Notes: a model not told the origin generated them from the letters alone. 24,680 nt of DNA from Archangiaceae bacterium (GCA_043750125.1 JAYVCD010000012.1:1-24680); one strand, 5' to 3'; positions 3,401 through 24,634 are shown, counted from the stretch's first letter. A program made the numbers and translations.

Positions 3401-6400
3401 CAACGCGGCGGCCTCGTAGAGCAGCGGAACCTGCTCGGTGGGGTCGGTGGTCAGCGTCAGCCGCTGCTCGATTGCCTTCAGCAGCTCGGCCGGGCGATCG
3501 AGCTTCTTGTACAGCCGGTGCAGCGCCTGAAACCCTGGAGCAGAAGAGGGCTCGAAGGACAGCGCCTGCAGGTAGGCGGCGATCGCCGCTTCGGGATCTT
3601 TGAGCTCGCCCTCGCACAGCTGCGCAATCTGAAGCTGAATTCCGCACCGCTCTTCGGGAAGGGCCAGCCGCACCCACTGCTGCAGCGCCTGCAAGCATTG
3701 CGGCCACTGCTGATGGCGGCGGTGCAGCGCCGCGAGCAGCGCCGCCGATTCAGGGCTGTTCGACAGCTCGACCCACCGCCGCAACGCGAGGGCTGCGGCA
3801 CGCGGGTCCTTCAGCTTCGTTTCGTGCAGCTGCGCCAACCCTTGCAACAGGGTCCCGCGCGCGGCGAGGTCGAGGGTCGCTTCGAGCTTCAACTCGAGCG
3901 CTCCGGCCTGTCGCGCGTGCAGCGCCCGCCGGGCGAACAGCTGGACCAGCGCGTCGAGCGCGGCCTTGCTGCCTACGTCGTGGGCGAGCAGACCGAGCAG
4001 CGTCTTCTCGGCCTCATCGACCTGGTCCAGCGCCTGGTCTTGAATCGCCGCCAGCGCCAGCGCGAGCCGTTCGTGGGTGGGCCCGAAGGCCAGCCCTTCG
4101 AGAATCTGCTGATAGAGCTTCGCCAGCTCGGCGGGCTTCGAGAGGCTCTTCGCCAGCCGCTCGGCCCGGTCGCGCCGCGAAGTGGGCGTGGGGTCGAGCT
4201 GCACGGCCTGGCAGGCCCAGTGGAAGGCGGCGGGCGCATCGTTCAACTGTTCTTCGTGAAGCTCCGAGAGCTCATCGAGCGTCACCGGCAATTCCGCGCT
4301 CTGCAGGTGGGGAAGAAAGGTCTGCAGCAGCCCCGCGGTCGGGGCCCACTGCGAGGTGCGGGCGTAGAGCGTTCGCGCCTCGTCGAAGGCCGTTCGGTTC
4401 GCAGGCTCGAGGCTCAGCACCCGCTGCAGCGCGGCGGCGGCCTGGGGCAGCGCGTTCAACCGCTCGTGGATTCGGGCCAGCTCGAGCAGGCTCGTCACCC
4501 CTTCGACGCTCGACCCCGCGTGCAGCTGGGCTTCGACCAGCAGGGCGAGGCTCTGGGCCAGCTCGGCAAACGCGTCGTAGCCTGCGAAGACGGAGCGCAG
4601 CCGCTGCAGCTCGGCTGCGGCGTCGGGAAGCAGCTCGAGGGAACTCCGGGCGGCCGCGAGCGCCAGGTCCCGGGAACCCAGCTCGACCAGCACTTCGGCC
4701 CGTCGCAGCAGATGGACTCTGCGTCCGGCCGCGGCTTCCGGAGACTCGGCGAGCTCTCCCAGCGCCTGGGCCAGCGCCGCCTTCGGACCCAGCGCAGCGT
4801 AGATCTCGACCAGCGCGGTGAGGGCGCCGGCGTGGCTGCGCGCGCGCTCGAGCACTTCGCGGTAATGAATGATCGCCGGCTCGGGCTGATTGAGCCGGCG
4901 GTAGGCCAGCTCGCCGAGCTGAAACTCGAGCGAAGCGACTTCGCGGGGATCCAGCGTCACTCCGCGTCGGGCCCGAAGCAGCTGGCCCAGCTCGTCATGA
5001 CGAAGGGCCCGCTCGTAGTGGCCGACCAGCAGGGCGAACCCTCCGGGATGAAGCGGGTCATCGGTCAGCAGCGCGCGCCCCAACTCGATCGCCCGCTGAG
5101 GGTTCGTCTGCGAGCACAGCCGCGCCAGCTTCAAGCGAAGCGCCTGACGTTCGAGCTGCGGCACGTGCAGCAGCAGGTGCTCGAGAATGGAAATCAGCCG
5201 CTCGGGCTGCGCGGTGCGCTCGTAGAGCTCTTCGAGTTTCCGCGCCGCCGCGACGTGGGCGGGCTCGAGCTCGAGCACCTCGCGCAGCGCGCTGCCAGCG
5301 CGGTCGGGTTGGTCCAGCCGTTCGTCGGCAACCGCGGAAATCCGCAGCAGCAAAGCGACCTTCGCTTCCCGGGTCGGCGCCACCCCCAGGCATTCTTCGA
5401 GCACGGGCAACAGCTCGGCCCAGCGGCCCAGGCCCTCGAGCACCCGGTCGAGCCCGGCCAACGCCGGGGTAAACGCCGCCTTCGCTCCCAGAGCCCGTCG
5501 GTAGAAGTCGGCGGCGCGCTGCGAATCTTTCAGCGGCCCCTCGTACAGCGCGCCCAGCGCCAGGCTGGTCTGCGCCACGCCTTCGGGCTCGAGCAGCGGC
5601 AACACTTCTTCGAGCACTGCCCCGAGCGCGTCCTGACACTGGGCGAGTGCGGCCAGCTCGATCAGCTGCGCCCGCAGGGCCGCGTCGGCGGGGGTCTCTT
5701 TGAACGCCCGCGCCAAAGCGAGGAAGCCCAGCTCGGGGTCCTGCTGCTTTTCCAGGCGCAGCTTGCCCAGCTCGAGCCAGAGCGCGCGTCGGCGGGTGCT
5801 CTCGGTCGAAAGCGGCGCGCGCCACTCGAGGAACGCGGCGAGCCGCTTCACATCACCGAAGTGCCGATACCCGCCCAGCAGCAGCTCGCTGGCGTGACCG
5901 AAGTGGGCCTCGCCCTCGAGAAATTGCTCGAGCTGGGCCAGCGCTTCGGGGTGGCTGGGGTGGGACTGGAGCACCTCGGCCAACAGCGGCAGCGCTCCGG
6001 TGCGATCTTCCAGCCGCGCGCGGCGCACCTCGGCCAACCGCAGGCGCAGCGGCACCGCGTCGTGCGGCTCGAGCCGGATTCGGCGGGCGAGGATCTCGGC
6101 CTGCTCGGTCCACAGCTGCAGCTGGGAACAAAGCCGGTCGAGCCGTCCCAACGCGGCCACGTCGTTCGAGGCCAGCTCGAGCACCCGGCGGTACGCGCTG
6201 TAGGCCCCGCGGGCATCGCTCAGAGAGTCATCGCGAACGGCGCCGATGCGCGAGAGCAGCGAAATCCGTTCCGGGTCGTCGTGGGCGTGAAGCAGCCGGG
6301 CCTCGAGCACCGCCACCAGCTCTCCCCAGCGCCACGAGCTCTCGAGCAGACCGACCGCGGCGGTGAGCGCTTCGTCGTCGTCGGGCAGCAACAGCAGCAG

Positions 6401-9400
6401 GGCGCGCCATTGCTCGAGCGCCGCGTCCGGGTCCCCGAGCTTCTGGTGAAGAGCGGCCAGCGGACGAAGCATCAAAATCTTCACGTCGTTCGACTCGACC
6501 TTCGGCAGCACCTCGGACAACAGCGTCGCCAGCGTCCCGTCGGCCTTCGCGATTTCGCCCAGACTCAAGCACCGCAGAAGCGCGCGGGGCTCTTCGGGAC
6601 TTTCGCGAAGCAGGCCGGCCAGGGTCTGCAGCGCCGCGGCGGGGGACTGCAGCCGGTGTTGATGCAGGTCGGCCACCCGGTGAAGCAAAGCCGCCCGCGC
6701 TGGCCCGACCGCCAGGCCCGCCCGCGCTCCGAGCACCTCGAGCAGCGCCGGCCACGCCTGGGTCTCTTCGAGCAAAGGCTCGAGCAGCGCCGCGGCAGAA
6801 TCGCAAGCCGGCCCCCCGGCGCGCATCAGCTCGGTCGTGGCTGCGAGCGCCTCGGGATGATTGGCCTGTTGGCCGAGGACTCCGCGCAGCAACTCCAACG
6901 CCCCTTCATCGTCGTTGAGCGACCGATGCTTGACCCGCGCCAGCCTCACCCGAAGGGTCCGCTCGAGCGTTTCGTCGCCCCGCCCTTCGGCCCGGCCCAT
7001 CTGTTCCTCCAGCAGCCGCGCGAGCTCATCGAAGTGGCGGTGGGCCTCGAGCAGCTGTTCGAGCACCGCGAGGGCGATGCGATGGTCGGGGGCGCGGCTC
7101 AACGCCAGTCGGCAGCTCTCAATTGCCAGCGGCGGGTCTTTGAGCTGCAGCTCGGCGAGGTCCACCAGCTCGAGCAGAAGGGAAATCTGCTCTTCCACCG
7201 ACGGCTGCAGCTCGGCCCGATTGCGCAGCAGCCGGGGCAGCTGGGCGAAGTCGCGCTCTTCCCGGTAGAGGGAGCACAGCGCAATCAAGGGGGCCTCTTC
7301 TCCCGGCTGACGGCGGGCCACCTGTTCCCAGGCCTCGGCCGCTCGCGGGCGCTGGCCCAGTCGTTGGTGAAGGACGGCCACCGCACGCCACAGCGCGAGC
7401 GCGAGCGGCTCGGGCAACCCGGTGAGCAGTTGCGCGCGGTACAGCGCGGTCAGCTCTTCGAGGTGGGCGGTGGTCTCGGCCAGCCGTTCGAGCTCGGCGC
7501 GGACCCGAAGATTTTCGGGCGTGGCCTTGAAGACCTCGGCCCGAGCCAGGAACGCCCGCCCGGGGTCTCCCAACGCCTCTCGCAGGACTGCCAGCTCTTC
7601 GAACAGACCCAGCGCGCGGGCGGCGGGCGCGGTCGACAGCTGCAGCTCGAGCGCTTCGGCCAGGCGCGGCGAGTCCTGGCGAGCGCGGTAGACCTTCTCG
7701 AGGATCGCCGCGGTGGGGGCCCGCAGCAGCGGAGCGCGCAGCAGCAGCGCCTCGAGCCCTTCGACCGCGGCGGCATCGGTGGCGCGCAGCCCCAGCGTCT
7801 GTTCGAAGAACCCCAGCGAGGCGTCCGGCTGCTTCAGCGGCCCGAGCGCCAGCTGACCCAGTCGCACCAGGGCGTCGGCCCGCTCATCCGCGGACTGCTC
7901 GGCGACGGTCAGCCGGCGCTTGAGCACCTCGTAAAGCTCGGGGTGCAGCGCGAGCCGCTCGAGCATTCGCGCCAATGCGCCAAACGCCTTCAAGTCGGAA
8001 GGAGCGCGCAACAGCACGTCTCGGTAGGCGGTGGCGGCCGTGCTCCAGTCGCCCAGGGGCGCTTCGGCCAGGCGGCCCAGCTCGTTCAATGCCGCAAGCT
8101 GCGCGGGGACTTCAGCCAGCAGGGGGACCTGCCGACGCAGCACCGCCGTGAGGGCCGCGAAGTTCTTTGCCGCCCGGTAGAGCTCGGCCAGCGCCTGCAG
8201 CGGCTCGAGGCTCAACGGGTCCAGCCGCGCCACTTCTTCCCACATCCGTGCGGCTTGAGCGGGGCTGGCGAGGCGGCCCGAATAAAGGCGAGCCAGCGTT
8301 TGGCTCAGCGCGAGCGAGACCGCGGCGGACGGCCGTCGCTCGAGCAGGTCCTCGTACGCGCCGACGAGCTCTTCTTCGAGCTGGGCGGCGATGGCGACCC
8401 GTTCGGCTTCGGCGCGGGCGAGGGGGTCTTCGACCGAGGCGCGGACCAGGCGCAGTCGTTCGACGAACGCCTGCCGGTGCTCGCCGAGGGCCTCGTACAG
8501 GCTCGCCAGCTCAGTGCGCAGCGAGCGCTCGGCGTGCGCATCGGCGTTCGCGACCAGGACTTCGAGGACGGCCAGCCGCTGCCACCGGTGCGCAGGATCC
8601 CGGTATACGCCCTCGAGCGACTCGGCCACCCGGGCGCTGACCCGGGGCTCGGCGGCGAGGCCGACCAGCGCGTTGACCGCGCGATCTTCCCGCGGAGCGC
8701 CGCGCAGCACTTCGGTCAACAACGTCACCGCCAGCTCGAGCTCGCCCGAGGCAATCAACGCTTTGGCCTGCTGGAGCAGCCGGTCGTTCTTCGACTGCGG
8801 GTCCGGCGCCGCCGCGGCGAGCCGGCCGAGCACCTCTGCGCGCTCGCGGTGGCGCTGCAGCTTGCCCAACACCCGCTCGAGCGCTCCGAGAGCCTCGAGC
8901 CCCTGGTCGAGCGCGAAGAGCGTCAACAGCGAGTCGGCGGCGGTGTCGAGCTGCCCCAACTTCTCGCGGGCCAATGCCAGCGCGAGCAGGGCGGCGGGCC
9001 GTTCGGTGGGCGTCGCGTTCTCGGCGCGGTGCTGCAGCAGCGTCGCGAGCTGGGCGTGGCGCCCGGCCTGGTCGAGCAACACCCCAAGTCGTTGCTGGGC
9101 TTCGGCGTCCAGCGGCAGGCAGGCCTGCACCTGGCCCCAGGTGGCGATCGCATCGTCTGGATCTCCTCCTGTCTCTTGCAGGTGGGCCAACGCCCGGAAC
9201 AGCTCAGCGCGCGCGGGGCCTTCGGGCTGACGCGTTCCGAGCTCTTCGAGCAGCGCGGCCAGCTCGTCCTTGAACCCCGCTGCGGAATCAGCCCGACCAG
9301 AAGTCGACCCGCTCATCCCCGGAGTGGCCGCTCCGTTCATCCCCGGAGCAGTCGACCCGTTCATCCCCGGAGCAGTTGCCCCGTTCATCCCGAGAGCAGT

Positions 9401-12382
9401 CGAGGGAAGGGGCCCTTCGGCCTCGCTGAGCTGAACGCAGCGCTTGAGCAGGGCCGGGTCGTGAGGGACTTCGCGCAGCGCGCGCGCGGCAGCGAGGAAC
9501 GCACTTTCAGGGTCTCCCAACGCGCCCGCCTGGAGCTGCGAAATCTTCACCCACAGCGCGGCGCGCTCGACCGCGTCGGCCTGAACCGAGATCTGCGCGG
9601 TGAGCAGCCCGACCAGCGCGAGGTGATCGCCGCGCTTCTCGAGCAGCGGCCCCGCGAGGCCAGCGGCCTGCGGTTGCAGCGGCCCGGCCCGCCCCGCCAT
9701 TTGAACCAGGCCCGCCACGGCGCCCGCGTTCCCCGGCTGCAGCCGCAGCACTTCGCGCAGCAGCTCGAACGCTCCCGCTTCGTCCGTTGCAGTCTGAAGC
9801 TTCAGCTGCGCCAGTCGAAGCGCGATCGCAGCCTCATCGCTCGAGCCTGATTCCCGCGCCCGCTGAAGGTCTCGCGCCAGGGCGTCGGCCCACTTCGGGG
9901 TGTCCTGACACTTCTCGTACAGCCGCTGCAGCGACGCGAGCAGCGAACGGTCTTTCGGGGCGTGCGCGCTGAGCCGCTCGGTGGCCCACGCCGCGAGCGC
10001 CGCATCGGCCAGCTGCTCTTCAGCCAGCCGGGCCAGCTCGACCAGCAGCTCGCTTTGCCGCGACGGCTCGGCGGTCGCTTCGACCTGTCGCCGCAGGACC
10101 GTCGCCAATCGGGAAAGATCTGCCTGGGCCCGAGCGCGACTGGCGTACGCGCGCAGCAGCACCAGATCGGTGGGGTCCGTCTGGGTGGCCTTTTCCCACG
10201 CCTGCGTCGCGGGCTCTCGTTGACCGCGCGCATCATGCAGCTCGGCGATTCTGCGCCAGAGGGTAGCCGGGTGGGGCTCGAGGCCCCGGTCGAGCTTGTC
10301 TTCGTACGCGGCGAGCAGCTCATCTTCGGCGCCCAGGGTCCCCGCCAGGCGCGCCAGCTCGGTTCGAACTTTCTCTTCGCCGCTCGAAAGCGCGAACGCG
10401 CGAAGCCGGGCGCTCAGCGCGACCCGCGGCTCAGAGGCGAGTTCCCACAGGGCCGCAATTTCAGAGAGCCGCTGAACGCGGGCGACGGGGGCCGGGACGG
10501 CTTCGAGCTGGACTTCAATCACCTCGGCCAGCGCGCGGGTCTCTTTGCGTTCGCGATGAATCGGCTCGAGCGCCTGCGCCGCGGCCTGGCGGGCCGAGGT
10601 GGTGAGCAGCTGCTGCAGACCCCCAATCGCGTCCGTCGTCGCTGCGCCGCACTCGATCGCCCGGAGATAAGCGACCACCGCCGCGGCCGGCTCGGTGCCC
10701 TTCAACAGCGCGCCGCGCCGCAGGTGCACTTTGCCCTGCTGGGCCGCGGGCTCGAGCTGAGCCAGCGCATCGAGCACGTACGCGTGGAGCTCGGCCCGTC
10801 GCACCGGCGCTTCGTCCGAGTCGCGCTTCCATTCCTGCGGAGTGGCGTCGTCCGCCAGCAGCCGGGTGACCGCCTTCAGCGCGCGCAGGTCGGTGCCCAC
10901 CGCCAGCGATTCTTCCAGAGCGTCGAGCGCCTCTTCGGTCGCGCCCCCATCCTCGAAGAGCCCCGCCGCCTCGAGCAGGCGTTCGATTTTTTCCGGCCCG
11001 TCGACGAGCCGCGCGCGACGAACACCCACTTCCGCCGCGCTCTGAGCTTTTCCGACCTGCCTGAACAACTTGAAGAGGTGGTCGAGGCCCTCGGGGTCTT
11101 CGGGCCGGACTGCGAGCAGATCCGTCCACATCAGCACGGCGGCCTGTGGCTGCTTCAGTCGCTCGCGAAGGCGCGCCACGAAGCGCAACAGCTCGGCGAC
11201 TTCATTCGCGTCGCTCGACGCTTCGGACGCGGCTTCGACGGCTTCGGCCAGCTCGTCCAGCGCGTCGGCCTGCTCGGCGAGCTGCAGCAGGGCGGGCAAC
11301 TTTTCCAGGCGCCCGGTGCCCTCTTCAAAAGCCTTCAATGCCTTGAGCAGCGCCTGCGTCGGGTGGGTGGGCAGCTTCGCGGTCAGACTCTCGACCGTCG
11401 CAAGCCACATCGCGCGCTCGCCCGCGGGTGCGCATTCGAGGCGGTCCTGCAGCAGCTGCAGCCGGGCCTCGAGCTGCCCCGTGGCTTCGAAGGCAGCCGA
11501 GAGCGCTCCCACCGCGGCGGCTCCCAACGGGCTGGGATCTGCGACGAAGCGTCGCAGCAGCGCTCGCGCCTCGGGGTGGGTGGGGACGGCGGCGAGGACC
11601 TCGGTGGCTCCGGCGACCGCTTTGCTCGGCAGGTTCAGCCCGCTGGCCTGCAGCTGCGCGAGCTGAAGGGTCAGCGTCCACCGTCTGTCTCCCGCGGCGG
11701 CCGACCGCTCGCCTTCCAGCGCCCGCGCGAGGTCCGCCGGCCGGTCGAGCGCGGTGGCCAGGCCCCGTACCGCCTCGAGCCCTTCGCGATCATCAGCGGC
11801 CAGGTCGAGGACGCGCAGCCAGCAGGCCAGCGAGCTCTCTTCGTCCCTCAGGTGGTCCTCGTGGACGCGGCCCGCCATGCGCCAGGTGGCGAGCTGTTCA
11901 TCGCGGCTGGCCTGCAGGCGGGCGAGCTTCTCGAGCACCTCGGCGAGTGCGGCCCATTCTTGTCGCTGCAGGTGCAGCCGGCGCAGGCCTTCGAGCGGAG
12001 GGACCTCGCGGGGGGCAGCCACGGTCGCGGCGCGCAGCTGATCAATCGCGCCGGTGGGATTTGACAGCCGCAGTTCGTTCAAAGAAGCCAGCCGAAGGTG
12101 AATCGCCGCTCGGGTGGGGCCGGTGGTTCCCTCGACCTGGTCGGCGAGGACCTCGAACAGCGCATCGACCGCGTCGACTTCGACCGCCACCTCTTCGGCC
12201 TGTTGCTGCAAAGTGGGGTCTGCCGGGCTGCCCTGCAGTGCGCGGGTCAGCGCGGCGAAGACCAGGTGGGGCTGTTGGAGTTTTCGCAGCGCCAAGGCTG
12301 CGTCGAGGCGGTGGTCCGGGGCGACGAGCAGAGCCTCGAGTTGCGCCAGCGCCTCGGCGTCTCCGGGACGCGCGGCGAGCAC
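449..12382 (-). CDS. giant tetratricopeptide-repeat protein, AgmK/GltI-like myxobacterial family (orthology not established)
   Basis: 3977-aa Ala/Leu/Glu/Arg-rich ORF with dozens of TPR-like helix pairs (e.g. AIAAYLQALSFEPSSAPGFQALHRLY) and a non-TPR C-terminal domain. No signal peptide. The true start may lie slightly upstream. Confidence 0.9.
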   Translation of the reverse strand: MLAARPGDAEALAQLEALLVAPDHRLDAALALRKLQQPHLVFAALTRALQGSPADPTLQQQAEEVAVEVDAVDALFEVLADQVEGTTGPTRAAIHLRLASLNELRLSNPTGAIDQLRAATVAAPREVPPLEGLRRLHLQRQEWAALAEVLEKLARLQASRDEQLATWRMAGRVHEDHLRDEESSLACWLRVLDLAADDREGLEAVRGLATALDRPADLARALEGERSAAAGDRRWTLTLQLAQLQASGLNLPSKAVAGATEVLAAVPTHPEARALLRRFVADPSPLGAAAVGALSAAFEATGQLEARLQLLQDRLECAPAGERAMWLATVESLTAKLPTHPTQALLKALKAFEEGTGRLEKLPALLQLAEQADALDELAEAVEAASEASSDANEVAELLRFVARLRERLKQPQAAVLMWTDLLAVRPEDPEGLDHLFKLFRQVGKAQSAAEVGVRRARLVDGPEKIERLLEAAGLFEDGGATEEALDALEESLAVGTDLRALKAVTRLLADDATPQEWKRDSDEAPVRRAELHAYVLDALAQLEPAAQQGKVHLRRGALLKGTEPAAAVVAYLRAIECGAATTDAIGGLQQLLTTSARQAAAQALEPIHRERKETRALAEVIEVQLEAVPAPVARVQRLSEIAALWELASEPRVALSARLRAFALSSGEEKVRTELARLAGTLGAEDELLAAYEDKLDRGLEPHPATLWRRIAELHDARGQREPATQAWEKATQTDPTDLVLLRAYASRARAQADLSRLATVLRRQVEATAEPSRQSELLVELARLAEEQLADAALAAWATERLSAHAPKDRSLLASLQRLYEKCQDTPKWADALARDLQRARESGSSDEAAIALRLAQLKLQTATDEAGAFELLREVLRLQPGNAGAVAGLVQMAGRAGPLQPQAAGLAGPLLEKRGDHLALVGLLTAQISVQADAVERAALWVKISQLQAGALGDPESAFLAAARALREVPHDPALLKRCVQLSEAEGPLPSTALGMNGATAPGMNGSTAPGMNGAATPGMSGSTSGRADSAAGFKDELAALLEELGTRQPEGPARAELFRALAHLQETGGDPDDAIATWGQVQACLPLDAEAQQRLGVLLDQAGRHAQLATLLQHRAENATPTERPAALLALALAREKLGQLDTAADSLLTLFALDQGLEALGALERVLGKLQRHRERAEVLGRLAAAAPDPQSKNDRLLQQAKALIASGELELAVTLLTEVLRGAPREDRAVNALVGLAAEPRVSARVAESLEGVYRDPAHRWQRLAVLEVLVANADAHAERSLRTELASLYEALGEHRQAFVERLRLVRASVEDPLARAEAERVAIAAQLEEELVGAYEDLLERRPSAAVSLALSQTLARLYSGRLASPAQAARMWEEVARLDPLSLEPLQALAELYRAAKNFAALTAVLRRQVPLLAEVPAQLAALNELGRLAEAPLGDWSTAATAYRDVLLRAPSDLKAFGALARMLERLALHPELYEVLKRRLTVAEQSADERADALVRLGQLALGPLKQPDASLGFFEQTLGLRATDAAAVEGLEALLLRAPLLRAPTAAILEKVYRARQDSPRLAEALELQLSTAPAARALGLFEELAVLREALGDPGRAFLARAEVFKATPENLRVRAELERLAETTAHLEELTALYRAQLLTGLPEPLALALWRAVAVLHQRLGQRPRAAEAWEQVARRQPGEEAPLIALCSLYREERDFAQLPRLLRNRAELQPSVEEQISLLLELVDLAELQLKDPPLAIESCRLALSRAPDHRIALAVLEQLLEAHRHFDELARLLEEQMGRAEGRGDETLERTLRVRLARVKHRSLNDDEGALELLRGVLGQQANHPEALAATTELMRAGGPACDSAAALLEPLLEETQAWPALLEVLGARAGLAVGPARAALLHRVADLHQHRLQSPAAALQTLAGLLRESPEEPRALLRCLSLGEIAKADGTLATLLSEVLPKVESNDVKILMLRPLAALHQKLGDPDAALEQWRALLLLLPDDDEALTAAVGLLESSWRWGELVAVLEARLLHAHDDPERISLLSRIGAVRDDSLSDARGAYSAYRRVLELASNDVAALGRLDRLCSQLQLWTEQAEILARRIRLEPHDAVPLRLRLAEVRRARLEDRTGALPLLAEVLQSHPSHPEALAQLEQFLEGEAHFGHASELLLGGYRHFGDVKRLAAFLEWRAPLSTESTRRRALWLELGKLRLEKQQDPELGFLALARAFKETPADAALRAQLIELAALAQCQDALGAVLEEVLPLLEPEGVAQTSLALGALYEGPLKDSQRAADFYRRALGAKAAFTPALAGLDRVLEGLGRWAELLPVLEECLGVAPTREAKVALLLRISAVADERLDQPDRAGSALREVLELEPAHVAAARKLEELYERTAQPERLISILEHLLLHVPQLERQALRLKLARLCSQTNPQRAIELGRALLTDDPLHPGGFALLVGHYERALRHDELGQLLRARRGVTLDPREVASLEFQLGELAYRRLNQPEPAIIHYREVLERARSHAGALTALVEIYAALGPKAALAQALGELAESPEAAAGRRVHLLRRAEVLVELGSRDLALAAARSSLELLPDAAAELQRLRSVFAGYDAFAELAQSLALLVEAQLHAGSSVEGVTSLLELARIHERLNALPQAAAALQRVLSLEPANRTAFDEARTLYARTSQWAPTAGLLQTFLPHLQSAELPVTLDELSELHEEQLNDAPAAFHWACQAVQLDPTPTSRRDRAERLAKSLSKPAELAKLYQQILEGLAFGPTHERLALALAAIQDQALDQVDEAEKTLLGLLAHDVGSKAALDALVQLFARRALHARQAGALELKLEATLDLAARGTLLQGLAQLHETKLKDPRAAALALRRWVELSNSPESAALLAALHRRHQQWPQCLQALQQWVRLALPEERCGIQLQIAQLCEGELKDPEAAIAAYLQALSFEPSSAPGFQALHRLYKKLDRPAELLKAIEQRLTLTTDPTEQVPLLYEAAALWEGKGPGLQADQRLERILKLRPSEERALEGLARLRRAGERWAGLVDVLTRHVEVAQGPLPKALLCGQLGGLLHQQLRDDEGAVRWWKRALESVPEHRPAFSALAHLHQLHGRWLEATRMIEREALLETDAHLRAELLHRSGLLLEDKLRDLAGASTAYQKALAGEPTHLPSLRRLRALYFKDAHWPGFEQTLAQEAEHAPTEADRASAGLELARHLHALGTDNRRAIRWYEHALSNAPEWIEAAQPLTQLLIAASQWPRAAQTLRVLISLFERGGPTHRLALIAHLSKLGDVERELGHSAVSLQTYEQALKLDATEPGALRGRAELYELAGKATEAAQQYELLLKHHEKAMPAVDRAELRVRLTRLFRTLGEKDRAIAMVEKALDADPVQPVALRLAIELSDGASTWDKAALYRQRLAGIAKGEERFALLVELGKIAQDKLLKPKLAITGYAAALELHPDALDVLERIHLAYRSAGQLQEAAKLQATLLAHPLLSEDARHRETLSLAELLGRTMKEEDRAVALLESALDRSPQFVQALQLLEALLVGSKRWKTLDECTRRLIVRLEKVPASAARRAVLWRSLGELRAVRLKDDPGAFEAYSAGARLAPDDAVAQEALGDFAIAHTEHEAEASAAYVRAIPHSEAPARVCGALARIAQKRGDHDSMLLAAGAAAVLGAPGPDEVRMLREFGRVARAPAQLRAPVSESQWQNLLLHPNLRGSLGHLMALIHTHVGAKYAADLGDFKLHPKKHRIELGESKEPALNNLRFIARSLGFESLVLYSPFLAARITGRAERHPDEGVGIRVNPTAPLSLFIGEPLLREADLQQLTAHLAATLALLRPELGMAVLLPPDGLSLLIEAALTFGDPSYVPRGDPKQLKVEQKRLGKALSAEGKTALARLASNLLRTSGRTNIAATYLDAVRHTTSRAALLVAGDFEPVQARVLPMQSSRVQFFIRELVVFAVGGDLHTLRVQTGSQLTAAKRA
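9309..9407 (-). repeat. REP-like element with 4 tandem 24-bp units, in frame inside the TPR gene (PSTALGMNG-ATAPGMNG-STAPGMNG-AATPGMSG)
   Basis: Units start at 9309, 9333, 9357 and 9381 on the + strand. The reverse complement of 9381-9407 is TCCCTCGACTGCTCTCGGGATGAACGG. Confidence 0.9.
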
Positions 12383-12447: not shown

Positions 12448-12507
12448 GCGACCGATCTGCAGCCGCGGCCAGATCTTCGCGATCCAGGCGGTGGGCAAAG
12501 GTGACCG

Positions 12508-12580
12508 TCCCTCGACTGCTCTCGGGATGAGCGGGGCGAGGCTCTCGGGATGAGCGGGGCGAGGCTCTCGGGATGAGCGG
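12508..12580 (+). repeat. intergenic REP-like element with 3 tandem units of 23-bp period
   Basis: TCCCTCGACT followed by GCTCTCGGGATGAGCGG(GGCGAG) at 12518, 12541 and 12564. Confidence 0.9.
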
Positions 12581-12701: not shown

Positions 12702-15700
12702 ATGACCCGCACTCTCCTGTTTGCCCTCGCGCTGTGTTGCGCTGCGCCGTCCTTCGCCACTGAGCCGGATCTCGCTCACGCCGGCTTCACCCAGTGGCTG
12801 CAGCGCTGGAACACTGCGGAGCCCGGGCTGCCCAGGCAGCGTCTGCTCGACGAAGGAATCAAGCTGGCCCGCGCGCGCCGCGAAGTGATGTCGCGGCTGG
12901 TTCGCACCGACCCCGAGCGGGCCCTGGCCCAGCAGCTGTCCCGCGCCGCCGTGCCTGCTGAGGTCGCGGAATTCGTCGAAGAGGGCTTCGACGCGCAGGG
13001 AAAATGGGAAGTCCTCGCGATGCTCGGCAAAGATCGCCGCACCACCTACGAGCGATCGATTTCCTTCGGCGCGCGCCGCTTTCGCGCCGAGGCCTGGGGA
13101 AATCTGCAGCACGCCAAGACCGTGGCGATGCACCTGCGCGGCCTGACCCTCGACGGGTGGGCCGCGGTGCGTGACGACGCGGTACCGCGAGCCAACATTC
13201 CCGGGGGCCCGCAGGCCTCTCCGCACACCATCGGGAACAAGAAGCTCCTCTACATCCGCGTCGACTTCATGGACGCTCCCGGAGAGCCGATTTCCCTCGT
13301 GCAGGCCCAGACCGACATCGCCGCGCTGAACAACTATTACAAGGCGTCCAGCTACAACAAGACGAGCATCACGGGCACCGTCACCAACACCTTGCGCATG
13401 CCGCTGAGCAAGGCGACGTACGGCACCACCAACAACACCTCGCAGCTCCTGGCGGACGCGCGCTCGGCGGCCTACGCGGCGAACCCCGGCGCGTGGGATC
13501 TGGACGTCGTCTTCTTCTCGACCATTTCCCAGTGGAGCTGGTCGGGCCTGGGCTACGTCGGCCAGAAGGGCACCTGGCTCAACGGCTCGGCCGGGGTCGG
13601 CACGGTGGCGCATGAGGTCGGCCACAACTACGGGCTGTACCACGCGAACTTCTGGCAGGCGGGAGCCGAGACGATCATCGGCGCCGGCAGCAGCCTCGAG
13701 TACGGCAACGTGTTCGAAGTGATGGGCAGCGGCAACGGCCAACCGAACGCCTGGTACAAGTGGGACCTCGATTGGTTCGGCCCGACCGAAGTCGAAGTCG
13801 TCACCGGCTCGAACAGCTTCCGCGTCTATGACCTCGAGCAGCCCATTCTCGGCGGCGCCCACGCGCTGAAGGTTCCGATCAGCGGAGCGCGCGACTACTG
13901 GGTCCATTTCCGACCCGCGTCGGGCGGCCTCAACGCGCACGGCACCGAAATCAACTGGGGCTACCCGAACTCCGACTCGTCGGACCTGCTGGACATGACG
14001 CCGTGGACCCAGACGGCCGCAGACGCTCCGCTGGTGATTGGGAAGACGTTCAGCGACTCGACCGCGGGTATTCACATCACCCCCACCGGCCTTGCGAGCA
14101 CCACGCCTGCGAGCATCGATGTCACCGTCAATCGGGGGCTGTTCGCCGGCAACCGGTCTCCGACGGTCACGCTGGTGGCGAGCGGGACGCAGGTGAACCC
14201 CAACACCGCCGTCACGTTCACTGCGACGGCCAGCGATCTCGATGGAGATCCGCTCGCCTACTACTGGGACTTTGGCGACAGCTCGGTGTCGACCAACTCG
14301 GCGCTGCAGACGCGCACCTTCACCACGGCGAAAGAAGTGGTGGCCCGCGTCACCGCCACCGACATGAAGGGCGGCACCGGCACCGCATTCGTAGTGGTCC
14401 GGGTGGGGAACCCTTCGACCTACCGAATCAGCGGCACCGTGCGAGAGCTGGGCGTGGGCGTCGAAGGCGTGCGCGTCTTCGTCGGCAGCAAGATGACGCT
14501 GACCGACACCCAGGGCGACTACACCCTGACCGGCTTCACCTCGGGCTCGTTCACCGTCGGCGCGACCAAGCCCGGCTGGACCCTCAACAGCAGCTTCGTC
14601 AACCCGGTGATGGTGAACACTGTAAACGTCACCGGCATCGACTTCACCGGCTTGCGCGCGACGTACACCATCAGTGGCAACGTCACCTCGGTCGCTCAGC
14701 CCTCGCCGGGAGTCACCATCACCGCCGGCCAGTACTCGACCGTCACCACCGCCAGTGGCGCCTACACGTTGTCCGGAGTGCCCAATGGCGGCTACCAGTT
14801 GCTGGCCAAAGGATCGTCCGGAGAAGTCTTCAACCCCACCGGCTTCACCAACCCGATTCAAATCAACGGAGCCAATCAGTCGGCTCGCAACTTCGTCGAG
14901 AACGTCTTCCCCGTCTCGGGCCAGGTGACCGGCACCGCGGGTCCGCACGATGTGACCGACGGAATTCGAACCGTGCAGACGGCGCTGTTTGGAGGAAGTT
15001 GGCTCTACAAGTTCCCCCGCGTCCCGCCGGGCAACTGGAACTTCGTCGCGTCTGCCGCCGGACAATTGATTGTTCCCAGCTTCGCCAACCCGGTCGCGGT
15101 GAGCGCGGCCGTGACGGGAAAGGACTTCACCGCTTCGGTCGGCGTGGGTTACCGGATTCGCGGGTACATCGATGAAGCGGGCTCACCGCTGGTGGGCTGC
15201 CTCGTCACCAGTGGCGCTCTGAGCTCTACGTCCGACTCGCTGGGCTTCTACACCTTCCCCAACATCGCCAACGGCAGCCTCGACGTGATGCCGGTGAAGT
15301 CCGGGTACGTCTTCTCGCCCGCGAGCTGCGCTGGGGTGGACGCCGGTTGTCGGACGGTGACGGTGGCGGGATCCGACGTGTCCACCGGAGTCGACTTCTC
15401 GGTGTTCGGCGCCAACGCCCCGCCGACGATTGCGTTTCCTCCCCACGCGAACCCCAGCCCGGTGATTGGGAAGACCGCCAGCCTCACCGTGCTGGGCGAC
15501 GACCCGATCGAAGGCGAGCAGGCGCTGAAGTATTTCTGGCGCCAGACTTTCCCGATCCCAACGCCGCTTGCGGACGGTGGCGCCGGACTCAATCAAGCGA
15601 CGTTCTCGACCAACAACACCAACGCGAGCAAGCAGGTCACGGTCACGTTTCCCAAGCCGGGCGCCTACGGCTTCGCGGTGGACATCATCGACGGGGGCGG

Positions 15701-18700
15701 GTTGAAGGTGACCGGCCAGGTGTCGCTGCTGGTGCTGCAGACGTCGTCGGTGGTGGCGGTGACTTCGCAAAAGAGCCTGCTGGAAGTCGACAGCCCCGAG
15801 CAGTTCACCGCCTCGGTCACTGACCAGTTCGGCGGGCTGGTGGACTTCGGAAACGAAGCGCTGTGGACGGTCAACGGCGGCGGCACCATTTCACCGACCG
15901 GAAAATTTCTGGCGATGACGGCGGGGGACTGGGTGGTGAGCGCGGAGGTCGACGGGAAGACGGGCAGCAAGATGGTGAAGGTGGTGGTGGGCCCGGTGCC
16001 GCGAATCGCGATTGCCCCGGCAGCGAACCCCAACCCGGTGATGGGAGACACCGCTCAACTCAGCGTGCTGGGCAGCGACGACAAGGGCGAAGACAAGCTG
16101 AAGTACGAGTGGAGCGCGGTGAATCCTCCGGGCGCGGTCACCTTCATGCCCAACGGCACCAACGCTTCGAAGGCCTCGACGGCGGTGTTCTTCGCGGTCG
16201 GTCTGTACAACCTGAAAGTCGAAGTGACCGATGAAGACGGACTGTCGACCTCGGGGTTCCTCACCGTCGATGTGAAGGTCGGAGTCTCGAAGATCGTCGT
16301 TTCCCCCTCGGCCGCGCAGGTTCCGGTGGGCACGTCGTTCACGTTTGGCGCCCAGGCGAAGGACGCCGCCGGCGCCAACATCGCCACTCCCGCGTGTGCC
16401 TGGAGCGCGGGCGGCGGCGCGATTGACGGGGCGAGCGGGCTGTTCACCGCGGCCATGACCGCAGGGGACTTCACGGTCACCGCGGTCTGTGGCGGGAAGA
16501 CGGGCAGCGCGCCGTTCAAGGTGACTTTGAAGAACGGAACCGATGGCGGCGGCACCGGCGGCGGGACCGGAGGAGGAGGGAAGGGCTGTGGCTGTACTTC
16601 CGGAGCCGAAGGAGCTGCGCCCTGGGCGATGTTCTTGATCGCGGTGGCGATGTGGGCCGGCCGTCGCAATCTGCGTCCCTCGACTGCTCTCGGGATGAAC
16701 GGGAAGGCTGCTCTCGGGATGAACGGGAAGGCGGCGATTGCGGCGATGGTCCTCGGTCTGTCGGGGTGTACCGAGCGGGCGCAGGATCAGGCGGCGAAGT
16801 CTCCGGGGGCACCGCAGTCGGTGCACAGCTCGAAGGCGGCGTTGGGCGAGCCGCAGTCCGGCTACCCGTCGGATCAAGAGCGGATGCTTCACGTGTTGAT
16901 CAACCAGGCGCGGCACTCGGCGACGACGCCGAACAACAACGAGTGTGGCGACTACACCGCTGAAGTGGGCGCGAACGTGAACAAGGTCCCGCTGGTCTGG
17001 GTGAAGGAAGCGAACCTCGGGGCGCGCTTCACCTCGCGGCACATGTCCGAGCTGGGCTGTTACCAGCACGAGAACTGCTGCGAGCTGGGTGACGCGGGAG
17101 CCGGAACCGTCGGCTGCATCGGCCCGGCCCAGTGCAGTGGTACCGGCTGCAACAAGACCTGCGATGCGGGCACGGGGCAGACGTCGACTCAGCGCTTTGG
17201 CTTGTTGGGTTTCAATTCGCTCTCGTCCGAAAGCATCGGGCAGGGCGTAGCGAGCGCGTACGACTTCTGGTGCGGGCTGATGCAGTCAGCGTCCAACCGA
17301 GAGGCGATCTACGCGGACGCAGGAACCCAGATTGGAGCGGGCAACTACGTCGCGAGCGCGCAGACTTGCAACGGCAGCTACTGGACGTTGGCCTACGGAA
17401 ACGCGCAGGTCACCGTGCCGAAAATCCCGGCCGCGGCGGCGATCTACAACCCTCCGAACCCGCTCAACACCTCGACGCTGTACTTCGCCGCGAACTATTA
17501 CGATCCGGGCAAGGCTCCGAAGCGGGCCGAAGTCGTCGTGGCGGGCCACTGCTTCGATCTCGAAAAGAAGTGGGGCTACGAAGACAACGGAACGTACGAG
17601 GTCCACTTCCCAGATCCGGACGTGCTGCCCGACGGGTGCCACCCGTACTACTTCCTCTTCACCGACGCCGATGGCGGGCGACTGACCTACCCGACCGTGG
17701 GCAGCTTTCAGCTCGCACTCGGTCAGACCACCACCTGTCCAGTGGCATACGACCCGGGCGCGCAATTGCTCGCGGACTGCGAGACGGGCATTCAGCAGTG
17801 TCCGGCCAATGGCTCGCAGAAATGTTACACGGCGGACAACGCGACGCTGGGCAAGGGTGAGTGCCGGCAGGGAAATCAGGTGTGCCGCAACGGCTTCTGG
17901 AGCGCCTGCAAGGACATGATCGGGCCGTTCCCGGAAGTGTGTGATGGGCTGGACAACGACTGCGACGGCACGGTGGACGTATTACCCGATGGCGGACTTC
18001 CCGGCGGCTCGTCGAGCTGCTCGGTGTTCGGAGAGCGAGGCATCTGCGCGGCGGGAGTGCGGACCTGTACCTCGGGACGGATGACGTGCGCGGGGACGAC
18101 AGCTCCGCAGGTCGAGGTGTGCAACAACATCGACGACGACTGCGACGGAAAGATCGACGACGGCTTTTCGATCGCCACCTGCGGAGTGGGCGAATGTTTT
18201 CGAATCGCGCTCGAGTGCAACGGTGGGACTCCGGGAGTCTGCGTGCCGGGAACGCCGACCGCCGAAGTGGCGGACTTCAAAGACAACGACTGCGACGGAA
18301 TCGTCGACAACGGGTTTTTCTGCACGCCCGGCATCATTCGCAATTTGCCGGCGACGCTGTCGCGTTTCACGGACGGGGGCATCTACCCGGTGAGCCTGCC
18401 GTGTAAGGGTGGGGCACAGATTTGTCAGCCGGACAGCGGGTGGGGCCCGACGCTGCAGGAAGTGTTGCCGTCGCGTGAGATCTGCGACGACAAGGACAAC
18501 GACTGCGACGGAAAGAACGACATCGACAGCATCAACAAGATTGGCTGGCTGCGGTGTGGAGTGGGCTCGTGCATGGTGTTTCCCGCATCGTGCAAAGCGG
18601 GAGGGGTAGCGGTGACCTGCACTCCAGCCGCGCCCACGGCGGAGATCTGCAATGGCGCCGACGACAACTGCAATGGAGTGATCGACGAGAACTGCCATTG

Positions 18701-19124
18701 CCGGATTGACGAAGAGCGTCCTTGTTACACCGGGACCTCGGCGACGCGTGACGCGGGTGTTTGTCACGGCGGCAAGCGGACGTGTCCGATGGGCGAATAC
18801 ACGAAGTGCACGGGCGAGGTGAAGCCGTCGCCTGAGTACTGCAACAACCTGGACGACGACTGCGACGGAGTGATCGACAACACCTGCATCCCGCTGACGG
18901 ACGCGGGCTCGGGCGGTGGGTCCGGAGGCGGCGCTGGAGGCGGGACGGGGGGCGTCGGTGTCGGTGGCGGAGGCGGCTCGGGCGGTGGCTCTTCGGCCGG
19001 GGGCGGAACGGGAGGTGGAGCCGAAATGAAGAAAGGCTGTGGTTGCTCAGGGGGCCCAGATGGCGCGATCGTCTTTGCTCTGCTCGGAATGCTGAGCACC
19101 GTCGTGAGGCGGCGCCGAAGCTAA
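12702..19124 (+). CDS. large secreted/surface protein: metzincin metalloprotease (M11 gametolysin-like) + PKD + carboxypeptidase-regulatory-like/Ig repeats + internal MYXO-CTERM; then lipobox + CAP/SCP-like domain + six Cys-rich CDxxDNDCDG repeats + terminal MYXO-CTERM
   Basis: ATG12702 has GAAGGA upstream and a signal peptide MTRTLLFALALCCAAPSFA. HEVGHNYGLYH at 13611-13643, followed by EYGNVFEVMG (Met-turn). PKD signature YYWDFGD. GCGC-TM-RR motifs at ~16581-16670 and at the C-terminus. The ORF-finder start at 12573 lies inside the repeat and is probably spurious. Confidence 0.88.
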   Translation: MTRTLLFALALCCAAPSFATEPDLAHAGFTQWLQRWNTAEPGLPRQRLLDEGIKLARARREVMSRLVRTDPERALAQQLSRAAVPAEVAEFVEEGFDAQGKWEVLAMLGKDRRTTYERSISFGARRFRAEAWGNLQHAKTVAMHLRGLTLDGWAAVRDDAVPRANIPGGPQASPHTIGNKKLLYIRVDFMDAPGEPISLVQAQTDIAALNNYYKASSYNKTSITGTVTNTLRMPLSKATYGTTNNTSQLLADARSAAYAANPGAWDLDVVFFSTISQWSWSGLGYVGQKGTWLNGSAGVGTVAHEVGHNYGLYHANFWQAGAETIIGAGSSLEYGNVFEVMGSGNGQPNAWYKWDLDWFGPTEVEVVTGSNSFRVYDLEQPILGGAHALKVPISGARDYWVHFRPASGGLNAHGTEINWGYPNSDSSDLLDMTPWTQTAADAPLVIGKTFSDSTAGIHITPTGLASTTPASIDVTVNRGLFAGNRSPTVTLVASGTQVNPNTAVTFTATASDLDGDPLAYYWDFGDSSVSTNSALQTRTFTTAKEVVARVTATDMKGGTGTAFVVVRVGNPSTYRISGTVRELGVGVEGVRVFVGSKMTLTDTQGDYTLTGFTSGSFTVGATKPGWTLNSSFVNPVMVNTVNVTGIDFTGLRATYTISGNVTSVAQPSPGVTITAGQYSTVTTASGAYTLSGVPNGGYQLLAKGSSGEVFNPTGFTNPIQINGANQSARNFVENVFPVSGQVTGTAGPHDVTDGIRTVQTALFGGSWLYKFPRVPPGNWNFVASAAGQLIVPSFANPVAVSAAVTGKDFTASVGVGYRIRGYIDEAGSPLVGCLVTSGALSSTSDSLGFYTFPNIANGSLDVMPVKSGYVFSPASCAGVDAGCRTVTVAGSDVSTGVDFSVFGANAPPTIAFPPHANPSPVIGKTASLTVLGDDPIEGEQALKYFWRQTFPIPTPLADGGAGLNQATFSTNNTNASKQVTVTFPKPGAYGFAVDIIDGGGLKVTGQVSLLVLQTSSVVAVTSQKSLLEVDSPEQFTASVTDQFGGLVDFGNEALWTVNGGGTISPTGKFLAMTAGDWVVSAEVDGKTGSKMVKVVVGPVPRIAIAPAANPNPVMGDTAQLSVLGSDDKGEDKLKYEWSAVNPPGAVTFMPNGTNASKASTAVFFAVGLYNLKVEVTDEDGLSTSGFLTVDVKVGVSKIVVSPSAAQVPVGTSFTFGAQAKDAAGANIATPACAWSAGGGAIDGASGLFTAAMTAGDFTVTAVCGGKTGSAPFKVTLKNGTDGGGTGGGTGGGGKGCGCTSGAEGAAPWAMFLIAVAMWAGRRNLRPSTALGMNGKAALGMNGKAAIAAMVLGLSGCTERAQDQAAKSPGAPQSVHSSKAALGEPQSGYPSDQERMLHVLINQARHSATTPNNNECGDYTAEVGANVNKVPLVWVKEANLGARFTSRHMSELGCYQHENCCELGDAGAGTVGCIGPAQCSGTGCNKTCDAGTGQTSTQRFGLLGFNSLSSESIGQGVASAYDFWCGLMQSASNREAIYADAGTQIGAGNYVASAQTCNGSYWTLAYGNAQVTVPKIPAAAAIYNPPNPLNTSTLYFAANYYDPGKAPKRAEVVVAGHCFDLEKKWGYEDNGTYEVHFPDPDVLPDGCHPYYFLFTDADGGRLTYPTVGSFQLALGQTTTCPVAYDPGAQLLADCETGIQQCPANGSQKCYTADNATLGKGECRQGNQVCRNGFWSACKDMIGPFPEVCDGLDNDCDGTVDVLPDGGLPGGSSSCSVFGERGICAAGVRTCTSGRMTCAGTTAPQVEVCNNIDDDCDGKIDDGFSIATCGVGECFRIALECNGGTPGVCVPGTPTAEVADFKDNDCDGIVDNGFFCTPGIIRNLPATLSRFTDGGIYPVSLPCKGGAQICQPDSGWGPTLQEVLPSREICDDKDNDCDGKNDIDSINKIGWLRCGVGSCMVFPASCKAGGVAVTCTPAAPTAEICNGADDNCNGVIDENCHCRIDEERPCYTGTSATRDAGVCHGGKRTCPMGEYTKCTGEVKPSPEYCNNLDDDCDGVIDNTCIPLTDAGSGGGSGGGAGGGTGGVGVGGGGGSGGGSSAGGGTGGGAEMKKGCGCSGGPDGAIVFALLGMLSTVVRRRRS
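16676..16733 (+). repeat. REP-like element with 2 tandem 24-bp units, in frame (PSTALGMNGKAALGMNGKA)
   Basis: 16676-16702 is TCCCTCGACTGCTCTCGGGATGAACGG, identical to the copy in the TPR gene. Units start at 16686 and 16710. Confidence 0.9.
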
Positions 19125-23533: not shown

Positions 23534-24634
23534 TCAGGCAGCGCGCTGAGAAGAAGAGTGCTCGAAGCGACCGGTGAAGGTCCACCGAAACGGATGCGCT
23601 TCGGCGCGGTTCCAGTGCGAGATGAAGCCGAGAACGGCTTCTCTGAGCGGTGGGACTCCGTCAAAGGACCCGTGCCGAATCACGCGGCGCTGGAGAATTG
23701 AGAACCAGATTTCCACTTGGTTCACCCACGAAGCGTGCAGCGGCGTGTAGGCGAAATGGAAACGTCCATTGTGGCGCAGGTTGAAGGCAGTCCACCGTTG
23801 CGCTTTGCCTTCGAGATGGATGTTGAGGTTGTCCCAGACCACGTAGACCTGCCGACCTGGGTGGTGCTTGGCGACCTCGTCGAGGAACGAGACGAGTGCT
23901 TCACCGGTGCGACGTTTCACAACCCGACCGAGTACTTCTCCGGTCTGAACGTTGAACGACGCCAGCAGACAGCAGGTCCCGTGGCGCTTGTACTCAAACT
24001 CGCGCCTGATGCTTGCGTCCGGTTGGCGCTGCGTCGGGTGTTTGCGCCCGAGCGCCTGCATCGGCTTCTCATCAATGCAGACCACGACGCTGCCCGGCGG
24101 CGGCTTCAGGTACAGCCCGCAGACTTGCGCGACCTTTTCGCGGAACAGCGGGTCGGGGCTGTGCAGCCATTGGCGCACGCGGTGCGGCCTGAGTCCCTCA
24201 GCGCTCAGCACCCGCTGCACGGTGCTGCGACTGATTCGCTTTCCGCTCTGACGATGCAGCGTGTCCGCGAGGCACTGCTGCGTCCACACCGTGGTGAAGG
24301 CCAACTTCGGTGGGCGTTCGCAGGCCAACTTCACCAACTCGCACTTCGTTGCCAGGGAAATGACCGCAGGCCGGCCCGGTCGATCCGCATCGCGGAGGCT
24401 TTCGATACACGGAGAAACAAGCCACCTCGCCTTCCACTTCTTGACCCAACGAGGGCACGCCCCAAGGCCCCGAGCCACCTCGACGATGGATTTACCCTTT
24501 CGGATCGCCAACAGGGCACGCGCTCGCTGAACGATCGCGTGTGACGACCTCGTGCTTCGCGACAAGCGCCGAATCTCCAATCGCTCACCACGAGTCATCG
24601 GAAGTAACGAGGTCACGGCGCTCTCAACCGTCAA
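23534..24634 (-). CDS. IS630-family transposase (HTH + DDE)
   Basis: N-terminal HTH with RPGRP, then catalytic CIDEKP, VWDNLNIH and WVNQVEIWFS. No frameshift. Start is TTG24634 or ATG24598. Confidence 0.95.
   Translation of the reverse strand: MTVESAVTSLLPMTRGERLEIRRLSRSTRSSHAIVQRARALLAIRKGKSIVEVARGLGACPRWVKKWKARWLVSPCIESLRDADRPGRPAVISLATKCELVKLACERPPKLAFTTVWTQQCLADTLHRQSGKRISRSTVQRVLSAEGLRPHRVRQWLHSPDPLFREKVAQVCGLYLKPPPGSVVVCIDEKPMQALGRKHPTQRQPDASIRREFEYKRHGTCCLLASFNVQTGEVLGRVVKRRTGEALVSFLDEVAKHHPGRQVYVVWDNLNIHLEGKAQRWTAFNLRHNGRFHFAYTPLHASWVNQVEIWFSILQRRVIRHGSFDGVPPLREAVLGFISHWNRAEAHPFRWTFTGRFEHSSSQRAA

Follow-up and report, generated by a model that had tools for sequence, protein, structure and literature searches.

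Whether one bacterial gene can supply two separately anchored surface proteins is the question raised by an open reading frame (ORF) of an uncultured myxobacterium of the Archangiaceae, located at 12702..19124 (+) of GCA_043750125.1, JAYVCD010000012.1:1-24680. This whole stretch of 24,680 nucleotides is called the window below. In its interior the ORF carries a MYXO-CTERM-like sorting tag, a class of signal that normally ends a protein, followed by a lipoprotein signal and a second exported module with a terminal tag of its own. The first-pass annotation, made from the sequence alone, proposed either a polyprotein processed into two anchored products or a recent accidental fusion of adjacent genes. 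In this study, the junction of the two halves (the seam) was investigated in the source genome, in related genomes and in public proteins. The locus is a real in-frame fusion, retained in evolution, of two surface-protein genes that were neighbours. Its product is probably cut back into two anchored proteins, and we favour cutting because many related species keep the join. On the comparative evidence the fusion is old, and is neither a recent accident nor an assembly error.

The frame is free of stop codons from ATG 12573 and ATG 12702 through 19124 (+), so the continuous reading from 12702 to 19124 that had been noted between the halves was recovered. ATG 12573 sits within an intergenic repeat copy, and ATG 12702 is likely the start of the ORF. 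The features that define the ORF and its sorting signals are as follows:

12702..19124 (+): the whole fused ORF, 2140 amino acids plus stop.
12702..12758 (+): signal-peptide-like N-terminal segment MTRTLLFALALCCAAPSFA, judged by eye.
16545..16580 (+): Gly-rich linker preceding the internal tag.
16581..16670 (+): internal MYXO-CTERM-like tag with GCGC motif (Cys residues 1296 and 1298), hydrophobic helix and RR, from hidden Markov model (HMM) and sequence.
16674..16732 (+): in-frame copy of a repeat element encoding PSTALGMNGKAALGMNGKA in the predicted cytoplasmic loop, with a head and a 24-bp x 2 tandem at 16684-16732.
16731..16769 (+): hydrophobic region (h-region) and lipobox, AAIAAMVLG-LSGC, with the Cys codon at 16767-16769.
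18903..19022 (+): Gly-rich linkers preceding the terminal tag.
19029..19121 (+): terminal MYXO-CTERM tag, from HMM and sequence.

The internal tag KGCGC...GRRN, the lipobox LSGC and the terminal signal KKGCGC...RRRRS, all named by the first-pass annotation, were each found exactly at the positions listed here. The terminal tag passed both curated families when half 2 was scanned alone (21.3 bits for TIGR03901 MYXO-CTERM and 18.2 bits for TIGR03382 GC_trans_RRR) and scored 19.8 and 16.7 bits, respectively, when the whole ORF was scanned. For the internal segment, the claim of a MYXO-CTERM signal held with TIGR03382 (16.9-17.5 bits; cut-off 15.85) and failed narrowly with TIGR03901. The segment before Cys 1356 agrees with the lipobox rule, having LSGC, 12 uncharged residues and two basic residues in the N-terminal n-region; this rule is PROSITE-like, and signal peptidase II (SPII) calls were made by the rule plus inspection. 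Position is the unusual property of both signals. The terminal tag is C-terminal, the internal tag ends 818 residues ahead of the stop, and the lipobox Cys is residue 1356 of 2140, far from the N-terminal place typical of SPII signals.

When all six reading frames of the 6.17-Mb genome were scanned with a regular expression, eight internal CxC-helix-basic matches were obtained, two of which were followed by a lipobox-like string; only 16581-16670 resembles a sorting tag. The search was strict and recovered just 12 terminal tags, so blanks elsewhere carry little weight. A match on contig C449 was considered as a second tag-lipobox seam and rejected as a Cys-rich membrane stretch.

The distribution of the fusion was determined with a 450-residue seam-centred query against 151 genomes of the family (E <= 1e-20). 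Matches were obtained in 34 genomes, 30 loci were fetched and every junction was read. Among the 29 informative loci, 23 are fused without a stop and six are split; one further locus (G002) is cut by a contig end. The fused loci fall into eight genera (four in g1, three in g51, 11 in g11 and one each in g9, g21, g50, g19 and g2), and the split loci into g13 (four), g52 and g53. The locus of G011 (g8) was also read as split and stands apart from these six. G072, G091 and G069 matched in half 2 only, with open frames of 760-1122 codons, and in 18 genomes the open frame covers 2115-2503 codons. In public databases, 15 of 18 non-self matches span at least 99% of the 251-residue junction in proteins of 2074-2162 residues; gene callers therefore predict a single protein. 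These matches all derive from metagenome-assembled genomes (MAGs) or metagenomes and are named carboxypeptidase regulatory-like, MopE-related, PKD domain-containing or MYXO-CTERM domain-containing. The question whether relatives encode one ORF or two genes thus received both answers, one ORF at 23 loci and split genes at six, and a recent accidental fusion is ruled out by a seam common to eight genera at approximately 50% protein identity.

The split relatives carry the same signals in conventional positions, the lipobox signal standing N-terminal. Half 1 of G056 terminates in a MYXO-CTERM tag with a stop eight residues past RR, a small gene for a secreted HEAT-repeat-like protein occupies the place of the seam, and half 2 then starts with Met and the lipobox signal. 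In g13, a single contig carries both halves, separated by 2-5 kb, in three of four genomes (same strand in G075 and G106, opposite strands in G016), and the halves are on different contigs in G094. Stand-alone half 2 reaches a MYXO-CTERM motif in three of the six split loci, namely those in which the locus extends far enough; half 1 of G057 was not found using the seam query. A maximum-likelihood tree of half 2 was built from 27 rows after L016 and L031 (too short) and L037 (uninformative) had been dropped. It requires three changes between the fused and split states, all forced by well-supported branches; therefore both forms appear viable. Whatever the direction of change in this unrooted tree, both states persist.

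Alignment of the 23 fused seams indicated which parts of the junction are constrained. Only four columns are invariant, namely the three residues of C-G-C in the tag and the Cys of the lipobox, the very positions on which the two sorting pathways depend. C-G-C is present in 23 of 23 seams and is followed by a helix and then an R/K cluster, and 19 internal tags exceed at least one curated MYXO-CTERM cut-off. The lipobox rule agrees with 22 of the 23 orthologues; the single failure has a 9-residue h-region, which also occurs in three of the six split forms. Lipobox residues vary within narrow limits (position -3, L in 19, F in three and S in one; position -1, G in 12, S in six and A in five; position +2, S, A, T, N or G). 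In pairwise comparisons the hairpin (helix, loop and helix) has a mean identity of 0.32, compared with 0.52 for the 120 residues ahead of it and 0.67 for the downstream flank, and the hairpin ranges from 35 to 81 residues. Its fast divergence would be the pattern expected of signals that are removed. Two seams were also scored against the 'lipo-invert tail' family NF058595, giving 13.4 and 15.6 bits, well under the cut-off of 37.

This alignment bears on the view that the conserved fusion stays uncut at the seam, the hairpin serving as an inner-membrane anchor with both ectodomains periplasmic and, at most, the terminal tag being processed. A stable two-helix anchor would fit the topology equally well, and three of the 23 internal tags (those of G012, G123 and G005) are under both MYXO-CTERM cut-offs. 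However, nothing at the seam is fixed beyond the CGC motif and the pair of putative lipid-accepting cysteines, its helices are not conserved, and the hairpin diverges faster than its flanks while tolerating insertions of 20-40 residues. A plain anchor needs no lipobox, yet 22 of 23 species have one, and in the split relatives each half is a protein of its own that carries these same signals. We therefore consider an uncut anchor unlikely. The pattern of fixed acceptor cysteines and CGC, drifting helices, a loop that takes insertions and split forms with shared signals favours cleavage over a permanent hairpin anchor, a preference that stops short of proof.

A second alternative concerns translation, with half 2 made also or mainly from an internal start codon, so that the locus would amount to two coupled genes lacking a stop. 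In the source genome (G000) the repeat contains in-frame ATGs at 24 and at 16 codons ahead of the Cys, and 15 of 22 loops have ATG, GTG or TTG at least 12 codons before it (the count covers 22 of 23 seams; the regular expression missed G005). In the remaining seven loops, the stretch from helix 1 to 12 codons ahead of the Cys contains no ATG, GTG or TTG, which means that half 2, signal included, could be made there only as part of the fusion. The position of candidate starts is not conserved, Shine-Dalgarno-like spacing was not seen by eye before the two ATGs of G000, and without a stop the ribosomes on half 1 must continue into half 2. An internal start is accordingly given a low probability, below that of the uncut anchor.

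Cleavage at both ends of the hairpin would require a myxosortase and the lipoprotein enzymes, and the source genome encodes them. MrtX is located at G000:C206:9995-10723 (-) with 352 bits for NF040593 (cut-off 180), and Lgt (136.2 bits; cut-off 118.9), two LspA matches (100.4 and 80.0 bits; cut-off 73.95) and the secretin GspD (615.9 bits) were also detected. Together with the signals kept in 23 fused orthologues, these enzymes lend support to the polyprotein idea of the first-pass annotation and to its out-helix-loop-helix-out topology. We propose that the helix of the internal tag stops transfer during Sec export, that the basic loop would remain cytoplasmic, and that the h-region after the loop would restart translocation. 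Lgt and LspA would act at the lipobox, with the cut before Cys 1356, and MrtX would cut after the tag Cys. The products, in equal amounts, would be a protease with a C-terminal lipid anchor and a lipoprotein anchored at both ends, and the helix-loop-helix hairpin of 35-81 residues would be discarded, thereby acting as a self-excising membrane linker. We infer cleavage, lipidation and equal release from the conserved signals and the encoded enzymes.

Several observations weigh against this processing scheme or against its details. The internal tag of the source genome scores 18.3-18.6 bits for TIGR03901, short of the cut-off of 20. In addition to the three tags below both cut-offs, a fourth (G073) did not pass; its scanned segment, with a long loop, missed the motif. 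In G001 (L002/L016) the frame changes within half 1, approximately 410 codons before the lipobox, with the seam itself open; this MAG is 78% complete, and the change could reflect a pseudogene or an assembly error. The scheme would have MrtX act about 800 residues from the end of its substrate and LspA about 1350 residues into a precursor, both hypothetical activities for any myxobacterial protein. Finally, a contig-level check of four public DNA runs of two studies returned no contig bridging 16732-16812, as the repeat breaks assemblies; because no public contig bridges the repeat, the exact seam length in the source genome rests on the MAG assembly alone.

The element responsible, which the first-pass annotation did not mention, is seen between RRN and the h-region as a head sequence followed by an exact tandem of 24 bp x 2 (16684-16732). 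It consists of a conserved head of approximately 25 nt and tandem tails with a period of 23-24 nt, and is dispersed and REP/MITE-like (repetitive extragenic palindrome/miniature inverted-repeat transposable element). The head occurs in 37 copies on 27 of the 460 contigs of the source genome, the tails often have a period of 23-24, and some copies form inverted pairs. The element is also present in G001, G004 and the more distant G032, and a search of the window against Rfam gave no hits and matched no described RNA family. One further copy lies 5' of the ORF:

12506..12580 (+): intergenic copy of the loop repeat element, with head and three 23-bp units.

Same-genus relatives lack the repeat at the seam. 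Read from these comparisons, the long loop of the source genome is a secondary in-frame insertion, and the loop is longer than in relatives because the repeat copy sits within it. Most copies lie in short open frames, and the two coding copies in the window read in frame as PSTALGMNG, an arrangement reminiscent of the in-frame palindromic elements of Rickettsia. One of the repeat-bearing frames in the window is a 3977-codon helical-repeat (TPR/ARM-like) ORF at 449-12382 (-), which holds the same repeat in frame (PSTALGMNGATAPGMNGSTAPGMNG...) at 9314-9407 (-) and may be either a single gene with an insertion or a pair of genes that the element bridges. In G022, a genome of another genus (L034), the seam loop has two variant copies in a different frame (…PRLRSGKTE…SPRLRSGRTE), and the loop of G054 (L031) may contain a degenerate copy. 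Loop-coding DNA thus seems to draw this element, with only in-frame insertions seen.

The repeat also gives ground for suspecting that the MAG is misassembled at the seam and that the true locus, in the source organism only, has a stop or frame shift and consists of two genes. Public contigs break at 16651-16731, where summed metagenome depth reaches approximately 1100-7000 over the repeat against about 9 in the flanks, none continues across 16732-16812, and one contig each in X3 and X4 carries a 1-base deletion at 16708. However, the repeat is present in many copies, any of which could be the origin of such contigs. The 24-bp unit preserves the frame at any copy number, and the seam is fused without the repeat in three same-genus genomes and 19 others. 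One contig is exact over 16300-16702, covering the tag, RRN and the entry into the repeat; it may stem from the source sample and is not counted as independent. Taken together, a misassembled seam is the least probable of the alternatives, and we regard it as very unlikely.

The retained fusion joins two halves of distinct domain content, with the following features:

13302..13805 (+): Pfam match to Peptidase_M11 (gametolysin-like), residues 201-368, including HExxHxxGxxH at 13611-13643.
14151..16544 (+), approximate bounds: stalk of half 1 with PKD, CarboxypepD_reg, K319L-like PKD and further beta-rich repeats.
16857..17408 (+): CAP/SCP/PR-1-fold domain of half 2, model residues 31-214, from predicted structure.
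17415..17729 (+): Ig-like beta-sandwich of half 2, model residues 217-321, from predicted structure.
17931..18869 (+): MopE-type Cys-rich metal-binding repeat region, with DxDCDG motifs starting at 17952, 18132, 18282, 18495 and 18852.

Half 1 matched PF05548 Peptidase_M11 at 36.2-38.6 bits (cut-off 21) with the HExxHxxGxxH motif present, and scored 43.2 bits against the NCBIfam M6 domain, under its cut-off of 110.8. It is predicted to be a Sec-exported M11/metzincin-like protease on a PKD/CarboxypepD_reg stalk that ends in a MYXO-CTERM tag. The first 400 residues of half 2 gave no Pfam match, with no CAP hit at E values up to 10, and the best result of a PDB profile search with its N-domain was just E 0.22. 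An AlphaFold model of half 2 was built from 27 orthologues (predicted local distance difference test 81.4, predicted template-modelling score 0.82). Foldseek gave a best template-modelling score of approximately 0.2 for this multi-domain model, and a second structure comparison revealed the CAP fold. Residues 31-214 superimposed on 4ifa with Z 15.9 (root-mean-square deviation 2.1 over 125 residues), on 4d53_A (Borrelia BB0689) with Z 13.7 and on 4h0a_B (SAV1118) with Z 11.9. The modelled N-domain of half 2 thus appears to have a CAP/SCP/PR-1 fold followed by an Ig-like sandwich at 217-321, and half 2 as a whole is a predicted lipoprotein with CAP/SCP-fold, Ig-like and MopE repeat parts, ending in its own MYXO-CTERM tag. 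Elsewhere in the window, an IS630-like transposase (DDE_3 and HTH domains) lies near the end at 23534-24634 (-), and a DUF2007/B-box protein, a LysM-VanY peptidase and a FecCD permease are neighbours unrelated to the fusion.

Seams of this kind occur in other proteins. A search of 1.84 billion representative proteins with a profile built from the 23 seams (E <= 0.001) gave 21 matches. Two belong to this family, 13 are short proteins matched in the ordinary way at their C-terminus, and six are long proteins with internal seams. Read directly and with Pfam, the six long proteins differ in domain content from the fused ORF:

P0030: Kelch, with a lipobox following the tag.
P0042: TSP_3, Big_2 and LTD, with a lipobox following the tag.
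P0041: BNR, with an internal seam.
P0027 and P0035: He_PIG, with signal peptidase I (SPI)-like signals following the tag.
P0024: 4011 amino acids, from a metagenome, with four tandem He_PIG/CARDB modules, each ended by MYXO-CTERM, and three internal seams.

In P0024, each of the three internal tags is followed by a signal-peptide-like segment, and the protein is a candidate four-part polyprotein. A second seam was found in the source genome at G000:C182:14400-16457 (-), equivalent to L055:401-2458 (-), where the internal tag (GCGC-helix-RRARR) leads directly into an SPI-like signal (…GSAQA, then QADGG) and a beta-rich tail of approximately 185 residues; neither part matched a Pfam or NCBIfam family. 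A tag plus a following signal peptide may be a general self-excising hairpin linker in myxobacteria, with myxosortase making one cut and either LspA or signal peptidase I making the cut at the opposite end, so that two to four complete surface proteins would be obtained per ORF in fixed ratio. We put this generalisation forward tentatively, as a possibility with nearly even prospects. If it were true, fusion and fission at seams would be nearly neutral, which would explain the alternation of fused and split states on the tree.

Membrane polyproteins that are split at an internal signal peptide have a precedent in FbcH, the cytochrome b/c1 precursor of Bradyrhizobium japonicum, which our literature search did not retrieve. 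FbcH is cut by signal peptidase I, has no lipid anchors or sorting tags and involves unrelated proteins. Literature searches directed at internal lipoprotein signals and lipoprotein polyproteins gave nothing relevant, and internal MYXO-CTERM tags appeared, within the portions of the literature retrieved, only in PMC11980579. That paper reports an internal MYXO-CTERM in MXAN_5598 of Myxococcus xanthus, puts forward a gene fusion as its origin and, pointing to precedents among sortases and archaeosortases, suggests that the N-terminal part is processed. Like MXAN_5598, the fused ORF has a mid-ORF MYXO-CTERM with a second exported module downstream. In contrast, MXAN_5598 continues downstream as an OmpA-domain beta-barrel of the outer membrane (TraB-like), and the excerpts of that paper describe no lipoprotein signal or second MYXO-CTERM; here CAP, Ig-like and MopE parts follow, with an SPII lipobox directly after the tag and a terminal tag of their own. 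The two belong to different protein families, and for both, cleavage is a proposal. The fused ORF is thus a variant of the internal-MYXO-CTERM kind already in print for MXAN_5598.

In Haloferax volcanii, an ArtA substrate with a central PGF tripartite signal arising from gene fusion is processed (Abdul Halim et al. 2017, via PMC6098224). There too, on this secondary account, fusion has put a C-terminal-type signal mid-protein and the sorting enzyme still processes it. Unlike the present case, the host is an archaeon, the enzyme an archaeosortase and the protein a Tat (twin-arginine translocation) substrate, and its NifU-domain part is not described in that account as re-exported. Ordinary MYXO-CTERM proteins such as TraA are, according to the sections retrieved, processed by MrtX and exported by the type II secretion system (PMC11980579; 10.1101/2023.06.07.544157). 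Processing of TraA by MrtX is also reported for E. coli (PMC11980579). The fused ORF shares with TraA-type proteins, as described there, the tripartite tag of Cys motif, helix and Arg cluster, MrtX in the genome and an N-terminal signal peptide; unlike them, one of its two tags lies 818 residues from the end.

The locus is of moderate interest, mainly since the proposed cutting is directly testable, and the 23 fused and at least six split orthologues with the same signals form a natural experiment for it. If the seam is cut as proposed, the locus would allow a first test of two activities, that of myxosortase on a tag away from the C-terminus and that of LspA on a lipoprotein signal 1350 residues into a precursor, and it would represent a simple bacterial route to the co-export of two surface proteins in fixed ratio. 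Counts of MYXO-CTERM proteins and lipoproteins in myxobacterial genomes would then be too low, as ORFs of this kind are now named as single proteins of 2100 residues. If the general linker also holds, the locus would be one well-sampled example of a polyprotein system in bacteria, a system not so far described in those terms.

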